A stretch of DNA of 38,022 nucleotides from Burkholderiales bacterium (GCA_043775155.1 JAYVSR010000135.1:1-38022), one strand, 5' to 3'. Counted from the stretch's first letter, positions 6,120 through 26,092 are shown. Numbers and translations: made by a program. Notes: generated by a model from the sequence alone, not told the origin.

Positions 6120-6188
6120 AACCAACTTGCCCGTCTGGCAACATGGCATCAAGTTTGCAGAGGGCGTTGCAGAGGAAGTGCCAACAAC

Positions 6189-6216
6189 AAAAAACCCGCT
6201 ACAAGAGCGGGTTTTT
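6189..6216. terminator. Intrinsic terminator (bidirectional geometry) after the pilin gene
   Basis: aaaaaa-cccgct-acaag-agcggg-ttttt, 16 nt past the pilin stop. Confidence 0.88.
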
Positions 6217-6232: not shown

Positions 6233-6910
6233 TTAGTTAATCAGCGTTGCGCCGCCGCAATTTGCCGCAATGGTGTTTTGCGTGGTCATCCAGTTGGTGC
6301 CGCTTTTGCAGGTGGCGGCGGTCGGGGCGGTACCAGTAGCGCCATCCCATACGCTGAAGCGGAACTGACCGGTTTCGGGCACGCTATCGTCGATCTTCAC
6401 GTCAGCTTCAAAAATGACATTCGACGGGATCAATGGGCCGGTTTTGATGTTGTGGCGCAGCGTAGGGGTCACGCCGGTAGGCGTGTTATACGCCGCATCG
6501 GAAACTAGTTGCAGGGCACCACCGTAGGCATTTACAGGGCTATTTGTGTTGGCGGCGGTACCCGTCGTCGTGCATACCTGACAGCTTATAAATCCCGTCG
6601 TAGTGATGTTTTGAAAGGCGGTTGCGGCATCGGCCGCATCAATCTGACCATTTCCGGGATTTGTCGTTGCAGCCGTCACACCCGCGCCGACTTGAGTCAC
6701 TTGACCCGCCGTCAAGTCGCCAGGCGTCATGCGAAACCGGTCCTGAAAGCCAAAAAACGCCGCCTTCACGCTGTTTTGCTGGTCGATGATATTGCGCACG
6801 CGCGCGTTTTGGATCAACTCTTGGCCGCGCAAAATGCCGCCCAGCAAGAGGCCAATGATTACTAGCACGATCGCAATTTCGACTAAGGTAAATCCACTTT
6901 GTTTGCGCAT
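6233..6910 (-). CDS. Type IV pilin-like protein, probable major subunit
   Basis: Class III signal MRKQSG|FTLVEIAIVLVIIGLLLGG with Glu5; AGAGGA RBS; own sigma54 promoter and terminator; CQVC plus a C-terminal Cys pair. Confidence 0.9.
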   Translation of the reverse strand: MRKQSGFTLVEIAIVLVIIGLLLGGILRGQELIQNARVRNIIDQQNSVKAAFFGFQDRFRMTPGDLTAGQVTQVGAGVTAATTNPGNGQIDAADAATAFQNITTTGFISCQVCTTTGTAANTNSPVNAYGGALQLVSDAAYNTPTGVTPTLRHNIKTGPLIPSNVIFEADVKIDDSVPETGQFRFSVWDGATGTAPTAATCKSGTNWMTTQNTIAANCGGATLIN

Positions 6911-6958
6911 GATGTCCTCTAATCTGGTTGGTGTGACGGGGTTACACCCGATTCATGG

Positions 6959-6975
6959 TGCAAGCTGCATGCCAA
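6959..6975 (-). promoter_or_regulatory. Sigma54 (-24/-12) promoter of the pilin gene
   Basis: Minus strand TTGGCATGCAGCTTGCA has exact GG-N10-GC spacing and is near-consensus TGGCAC-N5-TTGCA; 48 nt upstream of the ATG. Confidence 0.85.
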
Positions 6976-7055
6976 GCAATGAGTGCCAAAAACACACCAT
7001 TTTCTCACTCGCAGGCCCAATTTGCCGCTCATTCTAGTGAATTATTCGGTGTTTG

Positions 7056-7091
7056 TGTTGGGAAACCGTCACCGCTGATGGAAACACGTCA
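7056..7091 (-). promoter_or_regulatory. Candidate upstream activator sequence: two imperfect 16-bp palindromes at 20-bp period
   Basis: Minus strand TGACGTGTTTCCATCA (7091-7076) and TGACGGTTTCCCAACA (7071-7056), about 80-115 bp upstream of the -24 element. Confidence 0.55.
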
Positions 7092-7874
7092 TCGGGCCGC
7101 TGGCGATCCGGTGTCTTCCAGCTCTTTGAGCCGCCCGGCCAAAAATCGGTATTCAGTGACGTCTGTCACGTGCCCGCTGGACAGCAACGCGCCAAGTAAC
7201 ACTTTCGCGGCCTCGGTCTGGTTCATCTCCGCACGCAAAAAAATTTCCATTTGCCGCGCCCAGGAGGGTACGTCAGACGCGGTGGCGTACAGACGCAGCG
7301 ATTCGGCATAGCGCACCGCGAGTTCGAGATCATGTAATTGATGTTTAGCGACGTAGGTGCTGTGCGCCAGCCATTGCCAGCGCTGATTTGGCGCCTTGAG
7401 AAACTGGTGATGCACGAACTCCAGCATGACGCGTTGGCGGGCGGGATCGTCGACCGCTGCGTAGAGGCGGCTGGCGGCCAGAAGCGGATACTGGCCCGCC
7501 GGGTCGAGTTCCAAAATGCGTTCGAGCCAGGCGCAGACGCGGGTGTAGTCGAGGCGCTTGAACGGCAGGCTGATCCCTGGCTGGTTGTCATGGGTTTGCA
7601 GCGCGAGGTTCAGCCACTTGGCGTAGGCGAGCGGCTCGTTCAGGCTTGACATCCGCGCATCGGTGACGCTTGGCGGAGTGCCCAAGTCTTCGGCGGAGGG
7701 GCGCTGCGGCGCTTGCGCGAGCGACCAGACGGCCTGCGCGCAGATCAGCGCGGCGAGACTCAGGCCGATTGCCAGCGGCACCGCGCTGAGCGGGCGTTCG
7801 TCGCGGTGCGATGTGGCACGGATGCGCCGGGTGAAGCGCGAAACCGCAGTACGAGTTACGGAGGTGTGGCTCAC
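7089..7874 (-). CDS. Membrane-anchored helical (TPR-like) hypothetical protein, partner of the ABC permease (PilG-like by position)
   Basis: One N-terminal hydrophobic helix, then helical segments (WLERILELDPAGQYPLLAA); GTGA overlap with the permease stop. Confidence 0.7.
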   Translation of the reverse strand: MSHTSVTRTAVSRFTRRIRATSHRDERPLSAVPLAIGLSLAALICAQAVWSLAQAPQRPSAEDLGTPPSVTDARMSSLNEPLAYAKWLNLALQTHDNQPGISLPFKRLDYTRVCAWLERILELDPAGQYPLLAASRLYAAVDDPARQRVMLEFVHHQFLKAPNQRWQWLAHSTYVAKHQLHDLELAVRYAESLRLYATASDVPSWARQMEIFLRAEMNQTEAAKVLLGALLSSGHVTDVTEYRFLAGRLKELEDTGSPAAR

Positions 7875-8707
7875 AAGTTTTTACGATAAAAATCAAACCC
7901 GGCCAGCAACAACAAGAGCGGCACATAAATCGCGGCTTGCGCCGCTGCTGCCGGCAATTGCCACCACACTGCCGGGCCTTGCCAGAGCCATGCCGACGAA
8001 GCAAACCGGTCCAGCGCCGGCAACATCGTCGCGATGCCGTGCAGCACAAAGCTCATGAACTTGAAGCTCGGCGCGCCGGATGGTGCCACCGGGCTGGCGG
8101 TGATTGCCAGCAAGGCCGGCATGATCCGGCTCAACGCATAAAACGCCGTGACCACTAGGAGACACAGAGCGCTCTGGCCGATGACCAAGGCGCAGGCCAT
8201 CGCGGCGGCGGCGACAATCGCGAGTTCAAACGCCAGAGCGATGCCCCAGGCTGCGACATTGAGCGCTGGTGCAAATAACAGCAGCGGCAGGCTAAACAAC
8301 GCCGCGCTGAGCGACGCCAGCACGACGTAGCCAAGCAGTTTTCCGGTTACGTAGCTGGCGCGCGGCAGTGCCAGCGAGAGCAATAGCTCCAAGCCCTTGT
8401 CGGCCTGCTCACGGGTCAGCCCCGAGACGACAAAGCTCATCACCAACAGCATGGCGGCAATGCGTAAAAACGCCGCCAGTGCAGATCCTTGAATGTTTGC
8501 CGCTTCGGTGATTGCCATTTCGCCGGCAAACCACGCCACGCCCATCCCGGCCAAGGCAATCACCATGGCCGCCAGCGCCAGCCGGCCGAACAATGCTTCG
8601 GCAAGCACATAGCGCGCGATCGTGATCACACCGGGCAATGCGCCGGTCAATCCGCCACGGCGGCGAATGTCGGCGAAAATGGGGGGCGGGCTAGCGGGGT
8701 TGACCAT
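7871..8707 (-). CDS. ABC-2 type transporter permease (PilI-like)
   Basis: About 6 TM helices; REQADKGLELLLSLALPRASYVTGKLLG signature; C-terminal DFYRKNL. Start is ATG 8707 or GTG 8713. Confidence 0.85.
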   Translation of the reverse strand: MVNPASPPPIFADIRRRGGLTGALPGVITIARYVLAEALFGRLALAAMVIALAGMGVAWFAGEMAITEAANIQGSALAAFLRIAAMLLVMSFVVSGLTREQADKGLELLLSLALPRASYVTGKLLGYVVLASLSAALFSLPLLLFAPALNVAAWGIALAFELAIVAAAAMACALVIGQSALCLLVVTAFYALSRIMPALLAITASPVAPSGAPSFKFMSFVLHGIATMLPALDRFASSAWLWQGPAVWWQLPAAAAQAAIYVPLLLLLAGFDFYRKNL

Positions 8708-8854
8708 CGGCACATTTTACGGCCCTGCGGCTGGTCTCGCCGTTGACATCGCCGCCGGTCTAATTGGTTGATCCGGTTAATCACTTGCGAGTATCCTAGC
8801 CGCCCGGCCCCGTCCGGTTTCACCAGCACGGTTTACTCCACCCCATCGCTCCCC

Positions 8855-10633
8855 ATGCCTGCAATTGAGTCCTACCGTAACCGCGCGCTGATATTTGCGC
8901 TGCTACTGCTATTGACACTGCAAGCTTCGGCAGACGGCGGCTGGCGGCCGATGCTGTTTTTTGCGCACATTGGCACAGCATTGTTGTGGCAGCCATTGGT
9001 GCCTCACAAACGCAACTTGACGCCATGGCAAATCGCGCTGGTGGCGGGCGTGGGCGCGCTGCTTGCCGCATTGTTGAGTCCGTGGGTGTTGCTGGCCTGG
9101 ACGATCTTGATTACCGGCCTCGCGGCAGGCCGCATCACAATGCTGGCCCCGAGGACTGAGCGCGCGTTCTACGTCGCTATTTTGGCGTTCATGGTGGTGG
9201 TGATGTTTTTGTTGCTGGTGCCCGGATTGTTGCCCTCCTACTTGCAGGCAGGCTTGCCGAGCGAGACGGCGCGTGATTGGCTGACAGGCGGTTTGGCTGT
9301 GGTCTTGTTGCCACTGGCGGTACTGGCGTGGCGCGCCGATATTGCCGCAGTTGCACACCCCGCAGCGAGTCGTCAAATCGTCGGCACCTACGATCTGGTC
9401 TACACCGCGTGGGTCGTGGGGCTGCTGCTGCTATTGATTTTTTTTTGCATCGCGCTGATGGCCCTGACCCGGTATGGTTACCTGCAAAGCATGGCCATCA
9501 CGCTGATTGGATTCAGCTCGTTGCTGCTGACGTTCTCGTGGGTATGGGCGGGAGTCGATCATGGCGGCCGGGACGGCACCGGCGGTGGTCTGTCGGTGCT
9601 GCTATCGCGTTATCTACTGTCTTTTGGTTTGCCATATGAAAAATGGCTCGACAAATTAACCACGCTGAACCGCACGCAAACCGACCCGGTGCGTTTTTTT
9701 GATGGTGCCATGCAGGCACTCGGTGATTTGGCGATTGTGGCCGGCGCCGAATGGACCGGCACCTCAATGAAAGGCGGCTTCGGCGCAACCGAAGGCGGGG
9801 AAGCCGTGCGCATCACCGCGCAAACCAGCGAAAACGACACTGTCCGTCAAGTCGAGGTGCTGCTGCGCACGCGCGAGCCGCTGTCGCCGGCATTCCTATG
9901 GCACTTTCAACTGTTGATTGGTCTCGCAGCAGAGTTCTACTGGGCCAAAACACGCGAGGCGCGCCTCCTGCAGCGCAACTATTTGCGTGCGGTGCATGAG
10001 ACCGGGGCGCGCCTGACACACGACATCAAGAACCTCCTGCAATCGCTCAACGGCCTAGTCGAGGCGATTGACTATGTTGAAGATGACCGCCAGGTGCGAA
10101 AGCTGGTCGGCCGGCAATTGCCTGCCATTTCGGCACGGCTGGCGGCAACGCTCGCCAAGCTGCAACAACCATCGACAGACAGTCAGCGCCTGCGCAATTT
10201 GTCTGCATGGTGGGACGGTCTGACAAAACGCTACGCGCCTGAGGGCATTCACTTTCGCGATCCGCAGTGGGACCACGATCTGCCCATCGTTGAGGCTCTG
10301 CTCGACAGTGCAGCAGACAACCTGATTCGAAACGCGGTGCGCAAACGTGCGGTCGAGCCGGGTGTAGTCATCACGGCGTCGCTCACTTGCCGCGTTGGCG
10401 AAATTGAATTTGCGGTCGAAGATGGCGGCGCCGCAGTGGACGATGAGGTTGCACGACAGTTGTTTAATTCGCCAGTCGCCTCGCGCGACGGTTTGGGCAT
10501 CGGCCTGTTCCAACTCCAGGAGCAAGCAGCAGAACTCGGATATGCCGTCTCTCTGGCGGAAAACCGGTGCGGTTGCGTTAGATTTGTGCTGACCAATCGC
10601 GCTGCCGCGCGGTCGGTGAATTGGCGGGCGTGA
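8855..10633 (+). CDS. Multi-TM sensor histidine kinase (PrsK-like H-box)
   Basis: Roughly 8-9 hydrophobic segments, H-box LTHDIKNLL, N-box DNLIRNA, VEDGG, G2 box GLGIGLF. Start moved to ATG 8855. Confidence 0.88.
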   Translation: MPAIESYRNRALIFALLLLLTLQASADGGWRPMLFFAHIGTALLWQPLVPHKRNLTPWQIALVAGVGALLAALLSPWVLLAWTILITGLAAGRITMLAPRTERAFYVAILAFMVVVMFLLLVPGLLPSYLQAGLPSETARDWLTGGLAVVLLPLAVLAWRADIAAVAHPAASRQIVGTYDLVYTAWVVGLLLLLIFFCIALMALTRYGYLQSMAITLIGFSSLLLTFSWVWAGVDHGGRDGTGGGLSVLLSRYLLSFGLPYEKWLDKLTTLNRTQTDPVRFFDGAMQALGDLAIVAGAEWTGTSMKGGFGATEGGEAVRITAQTSENDTVRQVEVLLRTREPLSPAFLWHFQLLIGLAAEFYWAKTREARLLQRNYLRAVHETGARLTHDIKNLLQSLNGLVEAIDYVEDDRQVRKLVGRQLPAISARLAATLAKLQQPSTDSQRLRNLSAWWDGLTKRYAPEGIHFRDPQWDHDLPIVEALLDSAADNLIRNAVRKRAVEPGVVITASLTCRVGEIEFAVEDGGAAVDDEVARQLFNSPVASRDGLGIGLFQLQEQAAELGYAVSLAENRCGCVRFVLTNRAAARSVNWRA

Positions 10634-10681
10634 TCGGTCTAAAACCGTTGGTGGAAGCGGGTCTTGGCCGGTCGCAGCTGG

Positions 10682-11572
10682 TTAAGGCATGCGGTTGGCG
10701 ACCACCATGCGGCTGATCAGGGTATGTGCCGAGACCCACACAAGCTGGTCATCAAATTCGCACATTTCGCTCGTGCCCGTCGTATCGCTGCAGGTGTTTG
10801 CCGCATCTTTTGAGTTGCGGACGATAAACGCCAGTGCAAACGACGCGCCGGCCGCCAGCGCAGCGTTGGGGTTGGTCGTGGCGTTCGCGGTTTCATCGAC
10901 GTTCGCTGCCGGTGCCCCTGGCCGTACTGTGCCGCCCGCTTGCGTTGCGCCGTAGCCATTTTTGCCAAACGACCAGACGATCGCGGTGGCGCCGGGCGGG
11001 TTTGCCCCGGCCCCGCCTGCCAGAGTGGTTTTCGATTTATCGGCATTCCGTTGATTGATCACAATTGCGCCGGACGTGGCGGCGGCGTAGGACAGGCCGT
11101 ACAGCACACTCGATGGCCGCGGTGAGGTATCGGACGCCACAGAAAATTCATCGGATACGCGATATCCGAAACGATTGTTCCAAGCGTCGCCTTCGCTCAT
11201 ATTGAGTGAGGCCCAAGGAAACGTGCCGATGACGTTACTGCAAGCGCCGGTGTTGGCACCCGCTGCGATCCGGTCTTCAAGACCGTCGCCGGTGCTGTCG
11301 GGGCAGGGCAGCCGCTTGTAGATGACGGCATAGCCCAATAACGACTCGCGAATTTCTTCGAGTTGTCGTTGTGTGCTGTTGACCTGACTTTGCTCGACCT
11401 GGCGGCTGAGCGGGCCGAGCAATCCGCCAATCAACAGCGCAATAATGACCATGCTGATGGCGAGTTCGGCCAGGGTGAAGCCGTGTTGGCGCGTTCTGAA
11501 GCCGTGTTGGCGCGCCCTGCAGCCGTGTTGCTGCGCCGGCGTGGCGAATGGGGTTATTGAATGCCGTACCAC
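10682..11572 (-). CDS. Minor pilin / pseudopilin (prepilin-type N-terminal cleavage/methylation domain)
   Basis: RQHG|FTLAELAISMVIIALLIGG; RLPCPD, FPWASL and FDDQLVWVS motifs. Confidence 0.88.
   Translation of the reverse strand: MVRHSITPFATPAQQHGCRARQHGFRTRQHGFTLAELAISMVIIALLIGGLLGPLSRQVEQSQVNSTQRQLEEIRESLLGYAVIYKRLPCPDSTGDGLEDRIAAGANTGACSNVIGTFPWASLNMSEGDAWNNRFGYRVSDEFSVASDTSPRPSSVLYGLSYAAATSGAIVINQRNADKSKTTLAGGAGANPPGATAIVWSFGKNGYGATQAGGTVRPGAPAANVDETANATTNPNAALAAGASFALAFIVRNSKDAANTCSDTTGTSEMCEFDDQLVWVSAHTLISRMVVANRMP
11477..11539. repeat. 3 x 21-bp tandem repeat in the prepilin leader
   Basis: gaagccgtgttggcgcgttct / gaagccgtgttggcgcgccct / gcagccgtgttgctgcgccgg, encoding PAQQHGC-RARQHGF-RTRQHGF. 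Confidence 0.9.
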
Positions 11573-12939
11573 GTGGAGAGGCCGTTGATGGTGATTCGCA
11601 GCGTTACTTTGTAAGCACCCGATTTTCCGGGAATCGAGAGTGAGCCGGCACCGCTCCAGCCGCCTGCAACTGCGTGCGTTGGTGAGACCGCATAGTCAAC
11701 CACGCGTTGCCAACTGTCCCAGTACAAATTGCTGAAGAACGGACAGTAGGGGAGCCAGTCAGCGAGCGAACCGGTGTCATCCCAATAGCTGCTGGGCAGG
11801 TAACCGCTCGTCGCACCAGTATCGGCCCGGCGGTCCAGGGTATTGTCCGCAAATGGTGTCCGGTCATTCGTCTTCGCGAAGGCGTTTATGCAGCTGATCG
11901 CCTCGACCGCAATCCGGTCGCTTGCGACCTGCATTAACTCATCGATCGTGATGTAAACCAACCGGTCATTGCATGAGTACGGTTGAGTGAAGCGCGCGTC
12001 TTTCGTCGTTGTCACAGCAGGCACGCATTGAATGAATTCCATCGGTGACGTCGCCGCTGTGCGGTATCGTGCGTTGTCACAAAACCCGCCGGTGCATTGG
12101 GTGTTGCGTACTGTGTCCAAAAATTGATCCGGGTTGACGCGCACCGTTCCGCGGCTGGCCTGCGTCAGGGTGCCGGTTTGCCGCGCCGCCGGAGGGCCGG
12201 GCAAGAGGATGACGGCTGCGACCCGGTTCGAAATAATGGCACCAAACGGATCGCGCACCACTAGCCAGGGGAACGGTCGCGTCGCTGCGCCGGCCACCGT
12301 ACCGCACCCCGTCGCGCCGGCGGTTGCAATCGAGGCGTCCAGCCGCGCCGGACATTCGGCACCATAGCTGTGATCGACCAAATTTGCCGAGACGGCGTAC
12401 CACGGAACCACTCCAGCACCGTCCGTCGTACCGTCCTGACGCAGATTTACACCGAGCATGCGCCAAGGTAGTTTGCCGAGGCACCGAATCGTAGTCGGTG
12501 CGAGATAGGGTGTGACCAGAGTTTGGCTTGCGGCGACCGTCCAGGTGCGAATAATGCAGCCGAGATCTTGCATGCCGTCATACAAGATTGGACCCGAAGA
12601 AGTCGCCGTGCCGTAGACATCCGGGTACGGCAGCGCACCAGGCCGCACGGCCCGGTATCCCTGCGTGCTGGTGATGTCGACCGACCGTGACCACGCCAAC
12701 AAGGCGTCTTTTGCCAGGGCGAGTGTTTTGGTTGCCTCGGCGGATTCCCCCCCCCCCTTGGCGCCGGCGAGATTCAAGGCGCGAATTCCCAGCGTGCCGC
12801 CCAGCACCAGCACGATGAAAATCAGTAACAACAGGGCGACGCCCCGCTGGCGATGGGTGCAGGCGAGGTACCGCCGGTCGCGCTGCTTGCTCGCGTCACC
12901 GTGGGTCTGCACCCACCGGAGAGTTGGCTGGCTCGCCAT
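11554..12939 (-). CDS. Large Cys-rich minor pilin, GspK/PilX-like N-terminus (no Glu5)
   Basis: RQRG|VALLLLIFIVLVLGG; 10 Cys after the cleavage site; motifs shared with 10682-11572. Confidence 0.78.
   Translation of the reverse strand: MASQPTLRWVQTHGDASKQRDRRYLACTHRQRGVALLLLIFIVLVLGGTLGIRALNLAGAKGGGESAEATKTLALAKDALLAWSRSVDITSTQGYRAVRPGALPYPDVYGTATSSGPILYDGMQDLGCIIRTWTVAASQTLVTPYLAPTTIRCLGKLPWRMLGVNLRQDGTTDGAGVVPWYAVSANLVDHSYGAECPARLDASIATAGATGCGTVAGAATRPFPWLVVRDPFGAIISNRVAAVILLPGPPAARQTGTLTQASRGTVRVNPDQFLDTVRNTQCTGGFCDNARYRTAATSPMEFIQCVPAVTTTKDARFTQPYSCNDRLVYITIDELMQVASDRIAVEAISCINAFAKTNDRTPFADNTLDRRADTGATSGYLPSSYWDDTGSLADWLPYCPFFSNLYWDSWQRVVDYAVSPTHAVAGGWSGAGSLSIPGKSGAYKVTLRITINGLSTWYGIQ
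12747..12757 (-). repeat. G11 homopolymer in the coding strand of the minor pilin
   Basis: Plus strand has C x11; coding strand reads AAG GGG GGG GGG GAA (KGGGE). Confidence 0.9.
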
Positions 12940-12948
12940 GCGAAGTCG

Positions 12949-13530
12949 TTACCTGGGGGCGGTGGTTGAATGCGTCGACGCCCGGGGCGGTGGATTCGCA
13001 CCGGGCGTGGGTGTCGCGGCAACAGTAGCGCCGCTGGCTCGTGGTTCGGCCAGCGGACTGCCAGATTGGAGCGGCACCGTCGTCTGATAGCCATCCATCG
13101 TCCGCCCATTGGTGAGATCCACCATCTGACCTGGCCGTGCCGACACGACCGGCCCGCCATCGGCCTGGATCCGCACCGATTGATTGGACTGCGGTGCAAT
13201 TGTCACGCCGGCTGGGCCTTCGCCTTGACGGACTTCTTTGCCGTCGAGAAACAGGATGGGTGTTTTGCCCGGCCTGACGATGATGCCGTTGACGATGACA
13301 GTCTGAGGCGCGTTGGTGTCGGCTGGCGCACCGCGCCGCAGGTCGAGCGCTTGCCGTTCTGCGGGCGTGTAGAAAAGGCGGCCGAGGCGGTTGTCTTGGC
13401 TCTGCGCTTGACCGCAGATACAGATCAACACAGACACCAGCAGCGCGAACAATTGGCGCGGCGTCAGAAGGCGCGGCCACCCCAGAAGGTCGCGTCGCCT
13501 GACGGGATGGCGTGATCCGTGGTGGCTCAT
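12949..13530 (-). CDS. Exported pilus assembly accessory protein (PilP/MshK-like by position)
   Basis: Hydrophobic signal, LGRLFYTPAERQALD, short beta-rich domain, Pro/Thr tail; ATGA-coupled to the upstream gene. Confidence 0.65.
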   Translation of the reverse strand: MSHHGSRHPVRRRDLLGWPRLLTPRQLFALLVSVLICICGQAQSQDNRLGRLFYTPAERQALDLRRGAPADTNAPQTVIVNGIIVRPGKTPILFLDGKEVRQGEGPAGVTIAPQSNQSVRIQADGGPVVSARPGQMVDLTNGRTMDGYQTTVPLQSGSPLAEPRASGATVAATPTPGANPPPRASTHSTTAPR

Positions 13531-14231
13531 CGGTTGCCCTTTGCCGCCGCGCTGGCGGCAGGTACGGCGTCTTCAACGAGCGTGATCCAGTCAATTTCAC
13601 AGGTGGCCGCGAGATTGCCGGCTGCCGCTGCGCTGCCTAAACCGAAACTGCTGGTCACGCGTGCGGCCCCACCCGCCCCCGCACGCGCGGTTCCCGGCTT
13701 GGCACTTTGCAGTGTGCATTGTTCGATCTGAAAAATCCCGGCGGGCGGGCTGGCGAGCCGCCGCAGGTAGCCGATGAAATCTCCTTCATGCACCAGACCA
13801 AGTTCGAGTTTCATCCGGCTCGCTTGCAGCGACCAGCCGCTCGCTGGCGCAGCGCCAGTGTCATACGGCCGGCGCGCGGCAATCGAGTACACCACACGTG
13901 GCAGCGCTTGGGCCTCGCGCGCCTCGACGACACGTTCAACCCAGTCGAGCCGCTCACCCTGCTCGGCACTTTGGGGGCTAGTGGGGCGGATCGCGTTCAT
14001 CTTGACATAGCGCTTGTATCGCTCCTGATAGGCAGTGATTTGCTGGCTCTCGTCGTTGGCACGTGCCAGGCGGCCACTTGCATCGAGCGCTTGTTTGCGC
14101 ATTTGCAGTTCACGATTGGCTGCATCGGCTTTGAGCCAGTTTCCAGCCCAAGCGGCACCGATGCCAAGAACTGCGAGTGCGGTACCCAAACCGGCAGCGA
14201 CTGACAGCTCGCGCATCTGTTGGGAGTTCAT
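13527..14231 (-). CDS. PilO/MshJ/GspM-like inner-membrane alignment protein
   Basis: N-terminal TM, coiled coil, then SRMKLELGLVHEGD...CEIDWIT domain; ATGA overlaps on both sides. Confidence 0.7.
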   Translation of the reverse strand: MNSQQMRELSVAAGLGTALAVLGIGAAWAGNWLKADAANRELQMRKQALDASGRLARANDESQQITAYQERYKRYVKMNAIRPTSPQSAEQGERLDWVERVVEAREAQALPRVVYSIAARRPYDTGAAPASGWSLQASRMKLELGLVHEGDFIGYLRRLASPPAGIFQIEQCTLQSAKPGTARAGAGGAARVTSSFGLGSAAAAGNLAATCEIDWITLVEDAVPAASAAAKGNR

Positions 14232-17040: not shown

Positions 17041-17056
17041 CGCTTCACCGCCGCCG

Positions 17057-18793: not shown

Positions 18794-18827
18794 GCGGCGA
18801 TGATCCGGCGAGAGGAATCAGCGCGTG

Positions 18828-20279
18828 TCATTTTGCTGTGTCGCTCAGTTGGCCGAGCCGCGTCTGCGCGCGACTGGTGTCGAACCCGGCTGGGCGCGCA
18901 CGCGCCAGTTCCAGCGATTTGGCATAGAAGTCGCGCGCCAGGCGTGACTCATGGATCCGGTCCAGACTGACCGCGAGGTTGTAGCAATAGTCGGGGTTGT
19001 TTGGATCGGCACGATGGGCATTGAAGTAGGCCTGTTGCGCTTCGTTCCAGCGCCCTTGCGCTGCCAACTGATTGCCCTGAATGAAGGGCAGGGCGCCATT
19101 GCCGGCGTCGGTGCGATCGGATTCGCGTGCAATCAGGCTGTTGACTTGGCTCAGAGCGCCGACTGGGTCGGTACCCGACTGCAATGCCGCCAATTGCGCC
19201 GCTGCGTAGGCGTCTTGCGGGTGCAGCCGTAAGACGCGCCTGAACGTCGCTTCTGCCACGTCGTTGCGGTTCAAGCGCAACTGGATCGTCGCCAGTCCGA
19301 GCAGTGCGTCACGGCTGGCGGAGTCGGCCCGCAGTGCGCGCTCATAGGCCTGGGTCGCACCCTCCAGGTTACCGCGCTGCAATGCGGCGTAACCCTCGGC
19401 GATATCGGGATTAACGGTTGCCGACCCGGCTGAGCGGGTGATTTGCAAATTGGCCGGGGTGTCTACGGCGGTACCGCCGTCGGCGCGCGCGGCGTCACGT
19501 CTCATCTCCCGTGTGTCCCGCGCATCCGGCAGTTTAGGTGCATTTTCGCGACCGGGCGGTACAGCCTGAGGGTTGACGCGACCAGCGCCCGTGTCGCCGC
19601 TGGCGGCGCGCGGGGTACGCTCCAATGTTTCTTCTCCGGGCGAAGGTTCCTTGTCGGCGGCAGGATCAGCCTGCCCGGTTACCGGTGCGCTTGGCGATGC
19701 TACGGTTGATCCCGTGTGCTGCGCAGGGGCCTGCACCGCTGGGGGCAGGTTGCGCACAGCGAGTGCCGCACGAGACGGCGGCTGCATTTGCTGCCAAATA
19801 TAAACGGCGTAACCGGCACCGGCCAATAGACACGAACCAACCAGAACGAAAAACGGCTTGCGGGAATTTCCATCCGACAGCCCCTTGCCGACCGATGGTG
19901 TCTTCTTCGCATTAAATACGTTGCGTACCGACTGCGCCGCGTCTACTGAGGAAAGGACAGGCGTCGTGGAGCCGCGAGAGGCAGGCATAACATCTTCAGA
20001 CGAAGGTCTGTTCGGAACTGCCGCCTCGGGCTCCAACTCTAGACCTAAGCTGGAGATTGACTCCACAGCGGGGGCGGTGAACTGAACCGCCGCGTCTGGC
20101 TCGATCCTGGCCGAACGCGAACGACCGACCGGCGGCGGATCAAGTCCCAATTCCTTGACCATATCGCGCGTGCCGACGGAAGCGGCAGTGGGCGGAACGG
20201 CGGTTGACTGGGCAGCATCAAGCTCTCCCGCCGACTTCGCAGACTCCGCCTTCTTCAGAGCATTCATTAAAAGGCTCAT
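18828..20279 (-). CDS. TPR-containing membrane protein (MshN/GspB-like)
   Basis: MSLLMNALKKAE N-terminus, one TM, Pro/Ala linker, C-terminal TPRs (WNEAQQAYF...YNLAVSLD). Start moved to 20279. Confidence 0.82.
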   Translation of the reverse strand: MSLLMNALKKAESAKSAGELDAAQSTAVPPTAASVGTRDMVKELGLDPPPVGRSRSARIEPDAAVQFTAPAVESISSLGLELEPEAAVPNRPSSEDVMPASRGSTTPVLSSVDAAQSVRNVFNAKKTPSVGKGLSDGNSRKPFFVLVGSCLLAGAGYAVYIWQQMQPPSRAALAVRNLPPAVQAPAQHTGSTVASPSAPVTGQADPAADKEPSPGEETLERTPRAASGDTGAGRVNPQAVPPGRENAPKLPDARDTREMRRDAARADGGTAVDTPANLQITRSAGSATVNPDIAEGYAALQRGNLEGATQAYERALRADSASRDALLGLATIQLRLNRNDVAEATFRRVLRLHPQDAYAAAQLAALQSGTDPVGALSQVNSLIARESDRTDAGNGALPFIQGNQLAAQGRWNEAQQAYFNAHRADPNNPDYCYNLAVSLDRIHESRLARDFYAKSLELARARPAGFDTSRAQTRLGQLSDTAK

Positions 20280-20297
20280 GTCCGCGATCTCCACCGT

Positions 20298-22361
20298 TTA
20301 TTGTTGGCCGGCACCAGAAGAATTGCTCTGGGTGCGGGAGCCAAATTGGATCGGCGCGGGCTTGAGCGCATTGGGCTGATCAAAAAAATCATGTCCCGGT
20401 AAAAACTCGCGAAATTTCTGAAAATCGCCATCGAGTGAGGGATCCTTGATGACGATGGGACGCAAAAATATCACCAGTTCGGAACGAGTGGAGCGCTCGT
20501 TCCGGTACCGAAACAGTTCGCCGGCAACCGGAACGCGTCCCAATCCCGGCACCGCATCCTCGCCATTATTCAGATCGTCTTGCATCAGACCGCCCATTAC
20601 CGCAATCTGATTATTGTTGACTTTCAAAATCGACTCAATTTCGCGCGTTTGTATCTCCGGAACCAAGTTGGTTACGTTGGCCAGAGCGAGCTGCGGATTC
20701 GGGTCGTTGACAAAGCGAAGAATGCGCGAGATCGAAGGCCGGACGTTCATCGTGACTTGATCGGCATCGTCGATCTGCGGCGTGACAGCCATAACGAATC
20801 CGACCGGTACGGTATTGGGAGTTGTGTTGTACGCGACAGTCGGTGCCACGCCAGCGACGGTAGATGGCACGACGGTTGCCGTCACCGTAAAGTAGACCCG
20901 GTTATCGACTACTTTGAGTAACGCAGTCTGGTTGTTAAGCACCGACAATTTGGGACTGGACAATACCTTGACGTTGCCAAATGATTCGAGCAGCGAGAGC
21001 GCGGCGGCGATATTGCCGATGCTCGACCCAGGATTGATATACGAGACTTGGAGTAGTCCACGATTGGTGGCTCCTGGATTAGTCAGCCCTGGTGTCAGAA
21101 CATTAGGCGCGCCAAACCCGCCACCACCGGGTGCCGCTCCGCCTGGCAGCGCTCCCACCGCTCCGGTGCCCCCGGGTTGCTGGGTAATTGAAAAACCATC
21201 GTTGCCCAAGCGCAGGCGTTGCCAGTTGATACCTTGTTGATATTGGCCGGATAGTTGAACCTCTACCACGGTCGCCTCGATCAGCACTTGACGGCGAATG
21301 CGTGACACTAGGCTTTCGATGAACTGGCGGACGATTTTGTGTTGCTTGGAGGTGCCGTTAATCGTCAACGTACCACTCTCACGGCTCACCATCACGTTGG
21401 GGTAGGTTCTAGTGGCGACGGTTGCGTTGGCGGCCGAACCGCCAATCGCGGGACAAGGATTGGAATCATCTTCTCCCGCAGAGGCGGCGGTGGCATTGTT
21501 TGACTGCGCCTGACCCTGCGCCTGGTTCGCGCTGCTGAGGTTTGCGTTGCTCTGCGAGTTGGCGTTAAAGCCCTGTCCGCTGACGCCGGTTTGACTTTGC
21601 GACTGAGCGTTTCCTTGAGACTGAAAAGCTGCGGCGGCAGCACGCGATTGATTCAACCTGATCTCACGCGCTTGCCTGCGTTCAGTGCGGGCAGTTTCTC
21701 GCTCTTCACGCGTCAGTGTGTAAGTGAGGATGGAGCAAAGATTTTGCGCCAAAGAATCCCAAAACCGCTGGGACGACACCATGCGGATTTCGGTCGAGGA
21801 ATTATTGCTTCCCCCGCCGCCCTGCGCTGCACCTGATCGTCCAGAAGTGCTGATTTCCGAGGCAAGACTCAGACTTGTGACGGTGTCCCGGTTCAAATTG
21901 ACGTAGTCAATCTTGTACACCAATGGATAGGGGTCGTCCGGAAGGATGGCAATCAAGCCGTCATCAAATGTGTAGCGCAACGAAACTTGCTGAGAAATGC
22001 GCTCCAGCAACTGCGGCATGGTTTGACTGATCGCATTTAAGGTCACGCTACCCGAGATGGATGGGTGGATATCAACGTTTAATTTGGCGTCGCGCGCGAG
22101 GGCGAACAATAGCGATCTAACCGGAACCTCATTGACCACCACACTAAAGGTCTCGGGCTTTGCGGCTGCTTGTGGAGGCGGGGGCAGTGGTGCTGCGAAT
22201 ACTGGCGGTGGAATGTCGGCAACCGGGCGAGGCGGTGCATTCTCGCGGCTCACGTGCTGTGGCGACGGTTTCAACGGCAGCGGCGCGCAAGCAGCGGTGG
22301 CAAGCACGAGTGCGAGCACGCGTGCAAGCAACAGCACGGAGCCGACATCCTTCTGCGGCAT
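20298..22361 (-). CDS. mshL: Outer-membrane secretin, MshL-like lipoprotein
   Basis: Lipobox-like LATAAC, ETFSVVVNEVPVRSLLFALARDAKLNVD, QVLIEATVVEV, GNVKVLSSPKL, VPGLGRVP, SELVIFLRP. Start uncertain (22361-22448). Confidence 0.88.
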   Translation of the reverse strand: MPQKDVGSVLLLARVLALVLATAACAPLPLKPSPQHVSRENAPPRPVADIPPPVFAAPLPPPPQAAAKPETFSVVVNEVPVRSLLFALARDAKLNVDIHPSISGSVTLNAISQTMPQLLERISQQVSLRYTFDDGLIAILPDDPYPLVYKIDYVNLNRDTVTSLSLASEISTSGRSGAAQGGGGSNNSSTEIRMVSSQRFWDSLAQNLCSILTYTLTREERETARTERRQAREIRLNQSRAAAAAFQSQGNAQSQSQTGVSGQGFNANSQSNANLSSANQAQGQAQSNNATAASAGEDDSNPCPAIGGSAANATVATRTYPNVMVSRESGTLTINGTSKQHKIVRQFIESLVSRIRRQVLIEATVVEVQLSGQYQQGINWQRLRLGNDGFSITQQPGGTGAVGALPGGAAPGGGGFGAPNVLTPGLTNPGATNRGLLQVSYINPGSSIGNIAAALSLLESFGNVKVLSSPKLSVLNNQTALLKVVDNRVYFTVTATVVPSTVAGVAPTVAYNTTPNTVPVGFVMAVTPQIDDADQVTMNVRPSISRILRFVNDPNPQLALANVTNLVPEIQTREIESILKVNNNQIAVMGGLMQDDLNNGEDAVPGLGRVPVAGELFRYRNERSTRSELVIFLRPIVIKDPSLDGDFQKFREFLPGHDFFDQPNALKPAPIQFGSRTQSNSSGAGQQ

Positions 22362-22559
22362 GGCAGCGTTTCGCGAGCGAAAAAAAGGCGCGATCTGGCC
22401 GGTCATTCGTCGAGTCCGGGTTGTCATGAAGAGCAGGGAGAATAGCATAGCAAGCAGGCTGACTACTGCATTGCAGCGCAGGGGCGCAGGGCGAAGCGGC
22501 TCGTCCAGGATGGTTCAGCGCTGCATGGTTCGCGGTGTCACCGCGCGTGTCTAATGACG

Positions 22560-23879
22560 CTACTCAGGCAGTGGATTTGGCACTATTTCCGTAGCCGGGT
22601 CGCCAAACTCACTGGCCTGAAGTGCGCGGTGCGCCGCGCCGCGCCGCGCCACCGCCGATTCGACGGGAGGGGGTGTGGGGGCGGAGTTTGTGCGCACGGG
22701 GGCGGTCTTGGTAGCGCCGGTTTGAATCACGGTTGCCGCCGAGCCGGTGGCTGGCGTTGCCGATGCCGAGAAAGTTGGAACTGGCAGCGCAATCATGCGC
22801 TCAGTACCGGTTAGCTGGGGCGAGACGCGTGCGAGCGCTGCTGGGGGGGTGGGCACTACGGGCGCGACCGGTGTGGGTGCCGATGTCGGCGGCGCTACAA
22901 CGGTAGGGACAGGAGTTGATGCCGATTCGACCGGTGCAGTAGGCCGATTCATGTTCGCGCCGGCAAACATGCCGCCCCCAATCAACAGCGCCGCCGCCGC
23001 ACCGCCGCCGGCCCAGTAGCCTGCGCGGGTCCAGCCGCCGGTGCCAGCGCCAAACGCATGGCGTTTTTGCAGCGGCGCAAACTCGGAATCGTTGATCGCC
23101 GCCAATGCGTGTTTGCGGGTGATGCCGTGCTCACCTTCCATGTAGGCGGATAGCAGCGCCTTGTCGGCGAGGATGTTGACGCGGCGGGTTAATCCTTCGG
23201 AAGTTTGCGCGATCAATTTGAGTGCATCGCGGTCAAACAGGTCTGGCCCTTTGTAGCCGGCCTGACGCAATCGAAACATCAAATATTGGCCGACATCCGC
23301 ATGCACCAACGGTTCCAGCCGAAAGCTATGGGTTACGCGCTCACGTAATGGGCGCATTCGCGGAGTGAGTAAGTGTTCATCGAGCTCCTGCTGGCCAAAC
23401 AGCGCAATTTGCAACAGCTTGTGCCGGTTCGACTCCAGATTCGAGAGCAGGCGAATCTCTTCGAGCGTTTCGGCGGGCATCGCGTGGGCTTCGTCGATCA
23501 ACAGGACGACGCGTTTGCCAGCGGCGTAGAGATCGATCAAGTGCTCTTGCAAGGCGCGCAGCAACTGGTGCGGTCGTTGCTCGGCAGCCGGCAACTTGAG
23601 GTCATCGAGAATCGCCAAGACTATTTCGTCCCGCGCGAGCGATGGATTGGCCAGATAGACGGTTTCCACCTCGGCCGGCAAGCGCTCGATCAACACGCGG
23701 CAGAGCATGGTTTTGCCCGAGCCGACTTCGCCGGTAACTTTGACGATGCCTTCGTCGTGGGTGATGGCGTAGAGCAGCGCTTCGAGCGTCGCACCGCGAT
23801 TCGCGCCGGCAAAAAAGAAGTCGGTGTGCGGGGTGATCCGGTAGGGGGCTTCGTTCAAGCCGAAATGGGAGAGGTACAT
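22560..23879 (-). CDS. ExeA/GspA/MshM-family AAA ATPase
   Basis: MYLSHFGLNEAPY, GEVGSGKTMLCR, LLIDEAH, LFGQQEL, GLTRRVNILADKALL; TM plus Pro-rich tail. Confidence 0.92.
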   Translation of the reverse strand: MYLSHFGLNEAPYRITPHTDFFFAGANRGATLEALLYAITHDEGIVKVTGEVGSGKTMLCRVLIERLPAEVETVYLANPSLARDEIVLAILDDLKLPAAEQRPHQLLRALQEHLIDLYAAGKRVVLLIDEAHAMPAETLEEIRLLSNLESNRHKLLQIALFGQQELDEHLLTPRMRPLRERVTHSFRLEPLVHADVGQYLMFRLRQAGYKGPDLFDRDALKLIAQTSEGLTRRVNILADKALLSAYMEGEHGITRKHALAAINDSEFAPLQKRHAFGAGTGGWTRAGYWAGGGAAAALLIGGGMFAGANMNRPTAPVESASTPVPTVVAPPTSAPTPVAPVVPTPPAALARVSPQLTGTERMIALPVPTFSASATPATGSAATVIQTGATKTAPVRTNSAPTPPPVESAVARRGAAHRALQASEFGDPATEIVPNPLPE

Positions 23880-23899
23880 GGCGCTGTGGTTCTACTTTC

Positions 23900-25339
23900 C
23901 TACCCTTGTTTTTCCAGCACACTCATGCGTGAGTACAGGGTGGTGCGGTTGACGCCGAGCATGCGCGCCGCCTGGCTGACGTTGCCGTGGCTTAGTTGCA
24001 TGGCGGCGGCAACATAGGCGCGCTCCCACGCCATCAGCCTGTCGTCGAGATTGAACGGGCCGCGCCGGGTGAGTTCGCGCAGCGCATTTTCGTCCAGCGA
24101 ATCTTCGTCACGCGCGTCGCTGCCGGCGGCGGTGGCGCCAGGGTCGAATTCGAGTTCGAGTTGACGCGCATCAACCAGGCGCCCGGCGTGCTTCGTGACA
24201 AGACGGATGACGACATTGCGCAGTTCGCGCACGTTGCCAAAAAAAGGATAGTCAAGCCACGAGCGTTCGGCTGCCGCATCGAGCGTGAACGGCACCACCC
24301 CAGCAGAACTGGTGTACAAATTGCGGAAGTGGGTCAGCAGTAACAGCCGGTCACTGCCTAGTTCGCGCAGGGACGGCACGTGCATGGTGAACACCGACAG
24401 ACGGTGGTACAGGTCGGTGCGGAACGCGCCGTTCTTGCACTCCGCTCGCAGATCGCGGTTGGTCGCGGCAACAATCCGCGCCTGCGATTTGCGCACCTGA
24501 GTTTCGCCAACCCGGTTGTACTCGCCGTTCTCCAGCACGCGCAACAGCTTCGATTGCAAGTCCAGCGGCAGCTCGCCGATTTCGTCAAGAAACAGGGTGC
24601 CGTCACCGGCGTCTTCAAAATACCCTGCTTTGGCAGTTTGCGCGCCGGTAAATGCGCCTTTGGCGTAGCCGAACAACGTCGGCTCCATCAACGATGGAGA
24701 AATCGCAGCACAGTTGAGAGCAAAGTACGGCTTGGCGCGGCGCAAGCCTTTGGCATGCAAGCTGGATGCTGCCACCTCTTTGCCGCTGCCTGACTCCCCT
24801 TCGATCAGCACCGGAAACGGCGAGTCGGCATACAGCGTGATCTGCGTTTTGAGCGCCTGCATTGGCTCGGAGCTGCCGATCAAGGCATCGAGCGGATCGA
24901 AACGCGGACTGGTCGCCTGCCACGCAATGTTGCCGCTTTCAGCCTGGCTGGCGCGGAGGGCGTCGAGCAGGATCAGTTTCAGGCGCGCCGGGTGGGCGGG
25001 CTTGGATACAAATTCAGTCGCGCCGAGCGCGCGGGCATGGCGCCCGGCGGCATCTTCCGACTGCCCCGACAAGACGATGATTTTGGTCGCGGGCGCATGC
25101 GCCAGCAGGGCGCTAATCAGCAGGTAGCCTTCGTCGGGGGCATGCTGCGCGGGGGGCAACCCAAGATCGATCAGCGCCAGGGGCGGCGGCTCGGGCAGCG
25201 CACGCACGCGGTCGATGGCGTCGATCCGCGTGCCAGCCGATACGATGTCAAAGTCGCGACCGAGCACGATCGATAGCGTATCGACAATCAACTGATCATC
25301 GTCGACCAGTAACAACCGCGGCAGTATTGGAGTAGGCAT
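23900..25339 (-). CDS. Sigma54-dependent response regulator (REC-AAA-Fis HTH), PrsR-like receiver
   Basis: LLLVDDD, IDLGLPP (phospho-Asp), [11 protein letters not shown], intact [38 protein letters not shown]. Confidence 0.94.
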
Positions 25340-25351
25340 GCGCTTATTTTC

Positions 25352-26092
25352 TCAGTGGCTCTCAATCACCTGCAGGAACGCCCGCTCCAGCGTCGGCGCG
25401 CCAGTCTCGTCGATCAAATCGCGCGGCGCCCCTAGAAATGCAATCCGGCCCGCGTGCAGGATCGCGATGCGATCACAAATTTCTTCGACGTCGGCCAAGG
25501 CATGCGAGGTGAAAAACAGCGCCCCGCCCTGGTCGCGCAAGGCGAACAAGCGGTCTTTGACGCGGGCGCGGGCTTTCGGGTCGAGGCCGCTCATTGGCTC
25601 GTCGAGAATCATTAGGTCGCGCCGCGCCAGAAACGCTGCCGCCAGACCAAGCTTTTGTGTCATCCCCTTGGAGAAGGCGCGCACCGGACGGGTGAGGGCA
25701 GATGGGTCGAGGTCGAGGTGATCAAACATGGCCAAAGCTTCCGCCTCGTCGTGGGCGTGGCCATGCAGCGACGCCATCATGTTGAGAAAGCCCCGGCCAG
25801 ACAGGTAATGCGGCGGGATGAAGCGCTCGGGCAGATAAGCCAAGCGGCGGCGCGCTTCAAAGCGCGCGCTCGACTCACCAAAAATTGAAATTTGACCAGA
25901 GGAGAAATCGGCCAAATCGAGCAGACACTTGATCAGCGACGTCTTGCCCGCGCCATTGACGCCAGCCAAGCCGAAGAACTCGCCGGGCCGGACCTCAAAA
26001 CTGATTTGATCGAGCACCAGCGGCCCGCCGCCGTAGCGCTTGGTGACGGCGGCGAACTGGAGGGCGGGAGTGACGGGGACGGGCGCTGGCAT
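25352..26092 (-). CDS. ABC transporter ATP-binding protein (PilH-like)
   Basis: GVNGAGKTS, YLPE, FSKGMTQKLGLA, LDEPMSGLDP; first gene of the pilus operon. Start moved to ATG 26092. Confidence 0.92.
   Translation of the reverse strand: MPAPVPVTPALQFAAVTKRYGGGPLVLDQISFEVRPGEFFGLAGVNGAGKTSLIKCLLDLADFSSGQISIFGESSARFEARRRLAYLPERFIPPHYLSGRGFLNMMASLHGHAHDEAEALAMFDHLDLDPSALTRPVRAFSKGMTQKLGLAAAFLARRDLMILDEPMSGLDPKARARVKDRLFALRDQGGALFFTSHALADVEEICDRIAILHAGRIAFLGAPRDLIDETGAPTLERAFLQVIESH

Follow-up and report, generated by a model that had tools for sequence, protein, structure and literature searches.

A gene cluster for an MSH-related type IV filament in a Burkholderiales genome, probably of a distinct lineage

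What kind of machine is encoded by the cluster of type IV filament genes at positions 6233–26092 of a 38,022-nucleotide (nt) stretch of DNA from a Burkholderiales bacterium (GCA_043775155.1 JAYVSR010000135.1:1-38022)? The whole stretch is referred to here as the window; the genome it belongs to is a metagenome-assembled genome (MAG) of 2.9 Mb in 302 contigs, 70.7% complete. The cluster encodes the parts of a pilus-like machine together with an ABC transporter and a two-component pair of the sigma54 type. We think it probable that the cluster represents a distinct, MSH-related lineage of type IV pilus machines, denoted “window-type”, that operates by the mechanism proposed below and includes an optional ABC module linked to its pilin.

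Open reading frame (ORF) listing and Pfam and NCBIfam scans yielded 16 tightly packed genes in this interval, all on the minus strand except that of the kinase. All of the gene types named in an earlier note on this DNA were found, although that note had counted 15 genes. In the order of transcription, the genes and associated sites are as follows (aa, amino acids):

25352–26092, minus strand: ABC transporter ATPase; 246 aa from ATG 26092, ORF open to TTG 26212; PF00005, E 8.9e-22
23900–25339, minus strand: sigma54-dependent response regulator (bacterial enhancer-binding protein); Response_reg, Sigma54_activat (E 6.7e-63) and HTH_8
22560–23879, minus strand: ExeA/MshM-like AAA_22 ATPase with a Pro/Ala/Thr-rich tail; PF13401, E 2.4e-29
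20298–22448, minus strand: MshL-like lipoprotein secretin; PF00263 (Secretin), E 3.1e-37
18828–20294, minus strand: TPR protein in an MshN-like position; several TPR families, E ~1e-10; membrane helix at residues 148–166
17057–18793, minus strand: assembly ATPase with a c-di-GMP-type MshEN N-terminal domain; T2SSE, E 2.5e-127
15838–17040, minus strand: inner-membrane platform protein of the GspF/PilC/MshG family; T2SSF, E 5.9e-50
14228–15841, minus strand: 537-aa protein, predicted PilM-PilN/GspL-like fusion, by fold only
13527–14231, minus strand: 234-aa bitopic protein in the PilO/GspM position, placed by position, size and an N-terminal membrane helix
12949–13530, minus strand: 193-aa protein with a signal-like N-terminus in the PilP/GspC position, placed by position and size; orthologues align
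11554–12939, minus strand: 461-aa candidate large minor pilin or tip protein; pilin-like N-terminal helix without the G/F..E motif
10682–11572, minus strand: 296-aa prepilin (minor pilin candidate); N_methyl, E 5.3e-7; weak T2SSG/GspG match
8768–10633, plus strand: histidine kinase; HATPase_c, H-box in the translation, 6–7 membrane helices by hydropathy
7871–8713, minus strand: ABC-2 type permease; ABC2_membrane_3, E 3.9e-5 (below cut-off); multiple membrane helices
7089–7874, minus strand: 261-aa membrane-anchored, TPR-like putative permease partner; profile match to consensus TPR proteins
7076–7091, minus strand: palindrome TGACG-N6-CATCA, candidate enhancer (activator site), from aligned pilin upstream regions
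6960–6974, minus strand: predicted sigma54 promoter TGGCATGCAGCTTGC, 50 nt 5' of the ATG of the 225-aa pilin
6233–6910, minus strand: 225-aa major pilin candidate, leader MRKQSG/FTLVE (slash, cleavage site); N_methyl, E 4.5e-8
6190–6216, minus strand: predicted intrinsic terminator 3' of the 225-aa pilin gene; 11-bp stem followed by a T run

The start of the ABC ATPase was placed at the ATG at 26092, where the earlier note had also ended the cluster, because its orthologues align only from about residue 39–49 of the longer ORF. For the 193-aa protein, an overlapping 234-aa ORF (12896–13600) was judged less likely.

The system most similar to the cluster is the MSHA pilus of Vibrio cholerae, with which it shares an MshL-like lipoprotein secretin, an MshM-like AAA_22 ATPase, an MshN-like TPR protein, an MshEN-type ATPase, a fused PilM/N-type protein, a mostly single locus and the lack of a peptidase of its own, the last two being features of MSH loci in the available part of Denise et al. 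2019 (PMC6668835). We considered the possibility that the cluster is a rearranged member of the canonical MSH family, that is, the Vibrio machine in shuffled order with a few neighboring genes. Clusters homologous to MSH but “significantly rearranged” relative to Vibrio were mentioned, with function unknown and data not shown, for Sideroxydans ES-1 and Gallionella ES-2 (Gallionellaceae) in the accessible portion of Emerson et al. 2013 (PMC3770913), and MSHA clusters in Gallionellaceae are listed in the accessible portion of a rice-plaque preprint. However, the window-type order, M-L-N-E-G-I'-J'-K' (M-L-N-E-G-537-234-193-461-pilin), differs from the Vibrio order msh[H]IJKLMNEGFBACDOPQ given in the available text of PMC13648600. 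Two or three pilin-like genes take the place of seven structural genes, the DUF6701 (MshQ-like) protein and the five-pilin set are absent from the locus, and in part of the window-type family there is sigma54 two-component control and an ABC-2 module.

Furthermore, the same genome has a second cluster in Vibrio order on contig C5 (L101 1021–10945), comprised of a PilX_N pilin, DUF6701, I, I2, a T2SSM-like J, K, an MshL secretin (257.6 bits, exceeding the cut-off), AAA_22 (MshM) and TPR (MshN). Comparison of nineteen 20-kb regions revealed two architectures. In the canonical one, I-J-K-L-M-N(-E-G), the ATPase is 34–42% identical to that of the window, while in the window-type one, [RR]-M-L-N-E-G-537-234-...-pilins-[HK]-[ABC], the identity is 58–63%, in other families. 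(The window ATPase is 35% identical to PilB from its own genome and 37–44% identical to typed GspE.) Both architectures coexist in the source genome and in at least four others (G000, G162, where they are adjacent, G213, G088 and G064).

The separation was also apparent in phylogenetic trees of the ATPase (54 rows, IQ-TREE quick search, LG+C20) and the platform protein (42 rows, LG+G4), in which the references, including five GspE and six PilB, were typed by curated cut-offs and the group labels were taken from the gene neighborhood rather than from the tree proteins themselves. All 27 window-type ATPases formed one clade with an SH-aLRT support of 99 on a stem of 1.22, while canonical-order MSH (nine rows plus locus L133), PilB and four of the five GspE formed other clades, each at 100. 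In the platform tree, the window-type (23/23), canonical (8/8) and PilC (6/6) proteins each formed clades at 100, and GspF (5/5) at 98. The components are thus located outside the typed MSH and T2SS (type II secretion system) clades, the comparison that the earlier note had called for. Canonical MSH identity is therefore denied to the cluster by the second, Vibrio-order cluster in its genome and by the separate ATPase and platform clades, and we consider a rearranged canonical MSH system unlikely. The proposal in the earlier note of a distinct, little-characterized filament subtype is borne out by these clades, by the coexisting canonical cluster and by the generic names that the proteins carry.

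Two observations concern the canonical clusters themselves. The C5 cluster has no ATPase or platform gene after MshN, and the same form lacking E and G was found in four other genomes (L109, L110, L112 and L114), none of which has the 537-aa family. At locus L118 (G162:C1:76000-95999), a window-type and a canonical-order cluster lie head to tail within 20 kb of one chromosome. The MshL model was matched above its cut-off in 113 of the 300 genomes sampled from the window's class (see below).

The core proteins were then compared with curated family models. The assembly ATPase passed the cut-offs of MshEN (PF05157, 52.4 bits vs 23.1) and NF053729 (65.2 vs 38), and missed those of GspE (520.3 vs 630.25) and PilB (508.2 vs 675.65). 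By eye, both window-type and canonical MSH ATPases show tandem MshEN motifs, which are not visible in PilB and GspE; the MshEN calls rest on the curated models, as regular-expression motif counts undercounted. The secretin scored 246.8–248.9 bits against TIGR02519 (MshL; cut-off 250.2), far closer than to GspD (172.4 vs 351.35) or PilQ (126.1 vs 284.35), and other window-type secretins exceed the MshL cut-off (e.g., G213:C9 and G162:C1, both 274.8), which is again in line with a canonical MSH origin. A lipobox-like Cys was present in 68 of the 79 secretin N-termini examined, as expected for the lipoprotein secretin described in the earlier note. The position of the TPR protein is kept in related loci. 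According to the available part of PMC6668835, MSH systems are defined by mshA, E, G, L and M in a single locus, and an MshM-type AAA_22 ATPase, an MshG-type platform and a pilin are indeed found here in one locus without a peptidase. The conserved order of MshE-like ATPase, platform, MshL-like secretin, MshM-like ATPase, TPR protein, 537-aa protein and prepilins makes up the core of the lineage.

The same scans bear on the question of whether the cluster instead encodes a T2SS-like machine, in which a short pseudopilus exports proteins and no surface pilus is made. The two systems belong to the same superfamily and share a GspL-like architecture of the 537-aa protein, a platform of the GspF family and an ExeA-like ATPase; ExeA is an accessory of the Aeromonas T2SS. 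In NCBIfam, the ATPase scores best with GspE and the platform with GspF, there is a weak match of the 296-aa pilin to GspG, and the locus has no retraction ATPase. However, the T2SS equivalog cut-offs were missed throughout, not only by the ATPase and secretin but also by the platform (GspF, 307.3 bits vs 424) and the 296-aa pilin (GspG, 25.7 vs 88.85). No GspC, H, I, J or K was detected among the window proteins in the Pfam and NCBIfam scans, and typed GspE and GspF fall in other clades. The ATPase N-terminus is of the MshEN type, and the 225-aa pilin gene has a strong promoter and a terminator of its own, as would be expected for a fiber subunit. A T2SS-like machine is consequently very unlikely. 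The type IVa pilus (T4aP) cut-offs for PilB and PilQ were likewise missed by the window proteins in NCBIfam.

Several proteins that would complete a window-type pilus machine match no family model, and for these we turned to structure prediction and profile comparison. The 537-aa protein had no match in Pfam or NCBIfam. Its AlphaFold2 model, folded with 22 relatives (predicted local distance difference test, pLDDT, 79.5), has an actin-like N-terminal domain, a long helix that includes the only membrane segment (residues 319–337) and a C-terminal α/β part, presumably periplasmic. The top match in Foldseek was PilM (5eou_B, E 3.7e-12), with FtsA and the EpsL/GspL cytoplasmic domains (1yf5, E 1.7e-8; range to 5.5e-7) ranked below it. 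By virtue of these matches to PilM and EpsL/GspL, the modeled protein is predicted to be a PilM-PilN/GspL-type fusion. Hydropathy showed one N-terminal hydrophobic helix each in the 234- and 193-aa proteins, which had no Pfam or NCBIfam family, no match above chance level in a profile search of the PDB and no match with hhalign; the only Atlas neighbors of the 234-aa protein were “hypothetical” clusters. The earlier description of the three proteins as PilMN/O/P-like thus holds, by fold only, for PilMN in the 537-aa protein, and for PilO and PilP it is based on position, size and one N-terminal membrane helix, no homology to them having been detected by any of these methods. When the three families were compared by hhalign with the I-, J- and K-position proteins of the canonical cluster in the same genome, the probabilities were 0.3–4%, a weak negative due to the single-sequence templates; this lack of profile similarity also argues against a shuffled Vibrio machine.

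The 461-aa protein (pLDDT 64.9) starts with a long N-terminal helix (residues 32–85) lacking the G/F..E motif. The top VIA-align rows for residues 330–461 were pilins and pseudopilins, with Z-scores of only 3.5–4.2, too low for a claim about the fold, and 4 of 30 Atlas neighbor clusters carry N_methyl; there was no Foldseek match at E ≤ 0.001, and Pfam found nothing on 15 family members. Thus, of the three pilin-like proteins described previously, the 225- and 296-aa proteins are supported by N_methyl, while the 461-aa protein has a pilin-like N-terminal helix and weak hints. The 225-aa pilin has >120 full-length relatives with 47–80% identity, all generically named.

How widespread is the machine? 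A word-indexed search with the 537-aa protein returned 34 relatives, none with a Pfam domain and none with a name other than “hypothetical protein”, and a scan for a conserved peptide pattern (one genome per species) returned 362 stretches, 349 of which encode a 537-aa relative. Taxon titles were taken for the best 80 of the 349. All of these titles were betaproteobacterial or unclassified, and the named families and genera were Gallionellaceae, Sulfuricellaceae, Oxalobacteraceae, Methylophilaceae, Rhodocyclaceae, Usitatibacter, Parachitinimonas and Pelomicrobium. Many of the 80 were titled only as Burkholderiales, Betaproteobacteria, Pseudomonadota, proteobacterium or “uncultured bacterium” MAGs; several were cultured isolates, among them Undibacterium danionis CCM 8677, Sapientia aquatica SA-152, Parachitinimonas caeni DQS-5 and Sulfuricella sp. 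T08. An exhaustive profile search of 1.84 billion representatives gave 2923 clusters at E ≤ 1e-3 and 1334 at E ≤ 1e-30. In an even sample of 300 genomes of the window's class, the family was present in 52/301 genomes, or about one in six. The machine is thus widespread in environmental Betaproteobacteria. In public sources, “hypothetical” and “prepilin-type ... domain-containing protein” are the only names attached to the 537-aa marker and the major pilin, consistent with the expectation in the earlier note that similar clusters occur elsewhere under generic annotation.

The 16 window proteins were compared by tblastn with related loci, 44 of which had the full upstream flank and 39 at least 9 kb downstream. 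Upstream, the ATPase and the platform were found in all 44, the MshM-like ATPase in 43, the secretin in 40 and the sigma54 activator in 29. Downstream, the 296-aa-type pilin was found in 36 of the 39, the 234-aa protein in 32, the 461-aa protein in 26 and the kinase in 12.

The earlier note had described the system as self-contained, which is not the case, since the cluster has neither a prepilin peptidase nor PilT. The only PF01478 (Peptidase_A24) match in the genome is on contig C254, beside PilC and PilB (822.6 bits vs a cut-off of 675.65). In tblastn searches with this PilD, only T4aP loci matched, and there was no match in the window or in any of 86 window-type loci. Genes resembling PilT and PilU are located on contig C75. 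On another contig, C282 (L102 3552–5957), is a gene for an 801-aa ATPase with GAF, MshEN and T2SSE domains, next to genes for a CHASE2-cyclase, a class-II phosphodiesterase-like protein, a cNMP-binding/rhodanese protein and a GAF-HD protein; this is apparently a PilB-like motor wired to cyclic-nucleotide signaling.

The remaining genes raise the question of how the major pilin gene is controlled. In Pseudomonas, Myxococcus and Geobacter, the multi-helix kinase PilS and the NtrC-type activator PilR act through a sigma54 promoter before pilA. A similar set of features is present here. The activator contains a receiver domain with the Asp, an AAA+ domain bearing GAFTGA and HTH_8 (translation and Pfam), and the kinase is multi-helix. 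The predicted promoter TGGCATGCAGCTTGC has GG and TTGCA elements that are invariant in 9/9 aligned pilin upstream regions, and the palindrome TGACG/TGTCG-N6-7-CGTCA/CGACA occurs in the same 9/9 regions, ~110–150 nt upstream. The copy in the window shares bases with the stop codon of the 261-aa gene. A major-type pilin gene could be recognized by pattern in 17 of the 86 loci, of which 11 had both the promoter and the kinase, one the kinase without the promoter, none the promoter without the kinase, and five neither. The sigma54 promoter was thus found only in loci with the kinase. By analogy, the kinase and the activator appear to behave like PilS and PilR on the major pilin gene. The likeness is one of architecture only: the nearest NCBIfam rows are PrsK, PrsR and NtrC, below cut-off, and the pair is absent from many window-type loci. 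The site at 6190–6216 is the strongest terminator-like site in the region, although overall the terminator and promoter scans did not rise above shuffled sequences.

A second sigma54-like motif, TGGCACTTCCTCTGC, lies at 6169–6183 on the minus strand between the pilin terminator and the kdsD start (6103), and may be due to chance. Three loci (L021, L048 and L064) without the kinase and activator have, at ~16.4–17.8 kb in each, a short receiver-domain gene after the 261-aa gene, 33–38% identical to the activator receiver, which may represent a different regulatory input.

The ABC ATPase is closest to the DrrA type in NCBIfam (145.9 bits, below cut-off), and its orthologues (52–77% identity; ≥45% counted) were found only in permease-bearing loci, 9 of 23, with most of the others cut at the flank. 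Across the 86 loci, the permease and the 261-aa protein were both present in 22, the permease alone in one, and neither in 63. The 261-aa protein has no Pfam match, and its profile is weakly TPR-like (consensus TPR proteins in the PDB, E 1.7e-7). A predicted complex of the permease and the 261-aa protein, made with alignments built for this analysis, scored 0.41 against 0.00 for the best of three controls, with at least 78% contact agreement between runs and a partner pLDDT of at least 68. This lends weak support to the pairing: of 80 solved complexes, 58 reached the mark used, as did 2 of 110 mismatched pairs, and with scores of ≤0.60 it was reached by only 7 of the 80 and by both mismatches. 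An ABC transporter within a T4aP cluster beside pilA is described in the available text of PMC6060248 for Myxococcus xanthus (pilGHI, function unresolved), and the likeness to its ABC ATPase, permease and accessory protein is by description only. The Myxococcus host machine is a T4aP and not MSH-like, and the partner in the window is a TPR-like anchored protein. PilGHI is reportedly required for piliation.

The ABC and two-component genes might also be unrelated neighbors, belonging to the envelope or to PEP-CTERM/exopolysaccharide genes. The locus sits between the envelope operons kdsD-lptCAB-rpoN and mlaFEDAC, and the modules are absent from many related loci. In the 33 loci with both flanks covered, activator, kinase and ABC genes were found together in seven, ABC only in six, activator only in 12, activator and kinase in three, and none in five. 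These counts identify the regulators and the ABC genes as accessory modules, not core. However, the pilin promoter and palindrome track the kinase, and the 261-aa family tracks the machine: it was present in 39/300 class genomes, 36 of which also had the 537-aa family (hand cross-tabulated), in 19 of the 36 within ~13 kb on the same contig. The other three genomes were G010 (75% complete), G094 (78% complete) and G141 (1400 contigs, unpublished). In the complete genome G088, a kinase-permease-261-pilin block lies beside kdsD, 183 kb from the machine, which indicates that the module follows the major pilin gene and not the motor. Co-conservation with the machine, on which the earlier note had made its reading depend, was thus found for the ABC genes and the regulators, but as variable accessories: activator, kinase and ABC genes all occur in only 7/33 loci.

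The best NCBIfam rows of the kinase, activator, TPR protein and AAA_22 ATPase all belong to XrtA/PEP-CTERM families, with scores (against cut-offs) of 34.4 (300) for PrsK, 325 (502.6) for PrsR, 47.7 (312.2) for PrsT and 213.6 (324.5) for TIGR03015. The link to PEP-CTERM was rejected, as every score is under its cut-off and neither XrtA nor an above-cut-off PrsR was matched in the 70.7%-complete assembly. These best rows may reflect a common ancestry of the accessory parts of a polysaccharide system and a pilus. Altogether, chance neighborhood of the ABC and regulatory genes is extremely improbable.

Several points weigh against a distinct window-type lineage as set out above. The window-type filament is known from genes alone; the identity of the 225-aa protein as the major pilin is inferred, and the likeness of the 234- and 193-aa proteins to PilO and PilP is one of position, size and a membrane helix. 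The ATPase tree weakly joins window-type and canonical MSH (80), together with two long branches, as would also suit a rearranged MSH system, while the platform tree groups canonical MSH with GspF and PilC and not with the window-type. Both trees are quick-search and unrooted, and the canonical rows were typed only by gene order and NCBIfam cut-offs, with no named Vibrio sequence among them. As the secretin is MshL-like by NCBIfam, the MSH model of TFFscan, which requires mshA, E, G, L and M, might class the locus as MSH. The relatives in the samples are not independent of each other, so the co-occurrence counts overstate the case, and the class sample includes the unpublished genomes G039 and G141. 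Many related loci lack the regulators and the ABC module. Finally, the window contains no excess of the sigma54 pattern (62 matches vs 61.15 expected), and the promoter draws its weight from position and conservation, not from the pattern count.

In the mechanism that we propose for the window-type machine, prepilins would be cut by the T4aP peptidase PilD encoded elsewhere in the genome. Cyclic di-GMP (c-di-GMP) would activate the assembly ATPase through its MshEN domain, and the ATPase would polymerize the 225-aa pilin on the platform, held in turn by alignment proteins of 537, 234 and 193 aa. The fiber would be primed by the 296- and 461-aa proteins and would exit through the secretin, the assembly of which may be aided by the AAA_22 and TPR proteins. 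The kinase would phosphorylate the sigma54 activator, leading to binding of the palindrome and expression of the pilin gene, as PilS and PilR do for pilA. The ABC-2 exporter and its TPR-like partner would be an accessory, optional and linked to the major pilin gene, with a cargo that may be a glycan or lipid associated with the pilus, or a factor that modifies the pilin. The role of the filament is likely c-di-GMP-dependent surface attachment.

A broader reading is conceivable, though we regard it as rather doubtful. The lineage would be a separate filament family on a par with MSH, T2SS and T4aP, with its own alignment proteins lacking Pfam models, and the ABC-2/TPR exporter would be a pilin-coupled component that, for example, exports or attaches a modification or a matrix polymer required by the fiber. 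The kinase would sense the membrane pool of pilin and tune sigma54-dependent expression, and mineral-associated iron- and sulfur-oxidizing and methylotrophic Betaproteobacteria would attach mainly by means of this filament.

The classification of type IV filaments recognizes a handful of families, and MSH has been studied experimentally almost only in Vibrio and its relatives. In the literature we found remarks in genome papers and no experiments on an MSH-like system from these Betaproteobacteria; the lineage has received only passing notice in print. Canonical MSH and T4aP occur alongside it, and five of the protein families on which it is built lack a Pfam model. Its characterization would add a branch to the classification of filaments, provide a function for thousands of “hypothetical” proteins and test whether the ABC exporter is a pilus accessory, and may account for the attachment of lithotrophic Betaproteobacteria to minerals, roots and flocs.

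The surroundings of the cluster are housekeeping envelope genes, with kdsD-kdsC-lptC-lptA-lptB-rpoN-ptsN on one flank and mlaFEDAC, an ABC-2 pair, murA and hisGD on the other, and the GC content is even throughout the region. Since mlaF flanks 18 of the 44 related loci and kdsD 4 of the 39, the chromosomal site is old rather than a recent island. The stretch is present in four DNA runs of one sediment study, and no RNA run was listed as containing it. Beyond the cluster, at 33934–36291 on the plus strand of the window, there is a gene for a 785-aa SulP-family permease fused to STAS and cyclic-nucleotide-binding domains.

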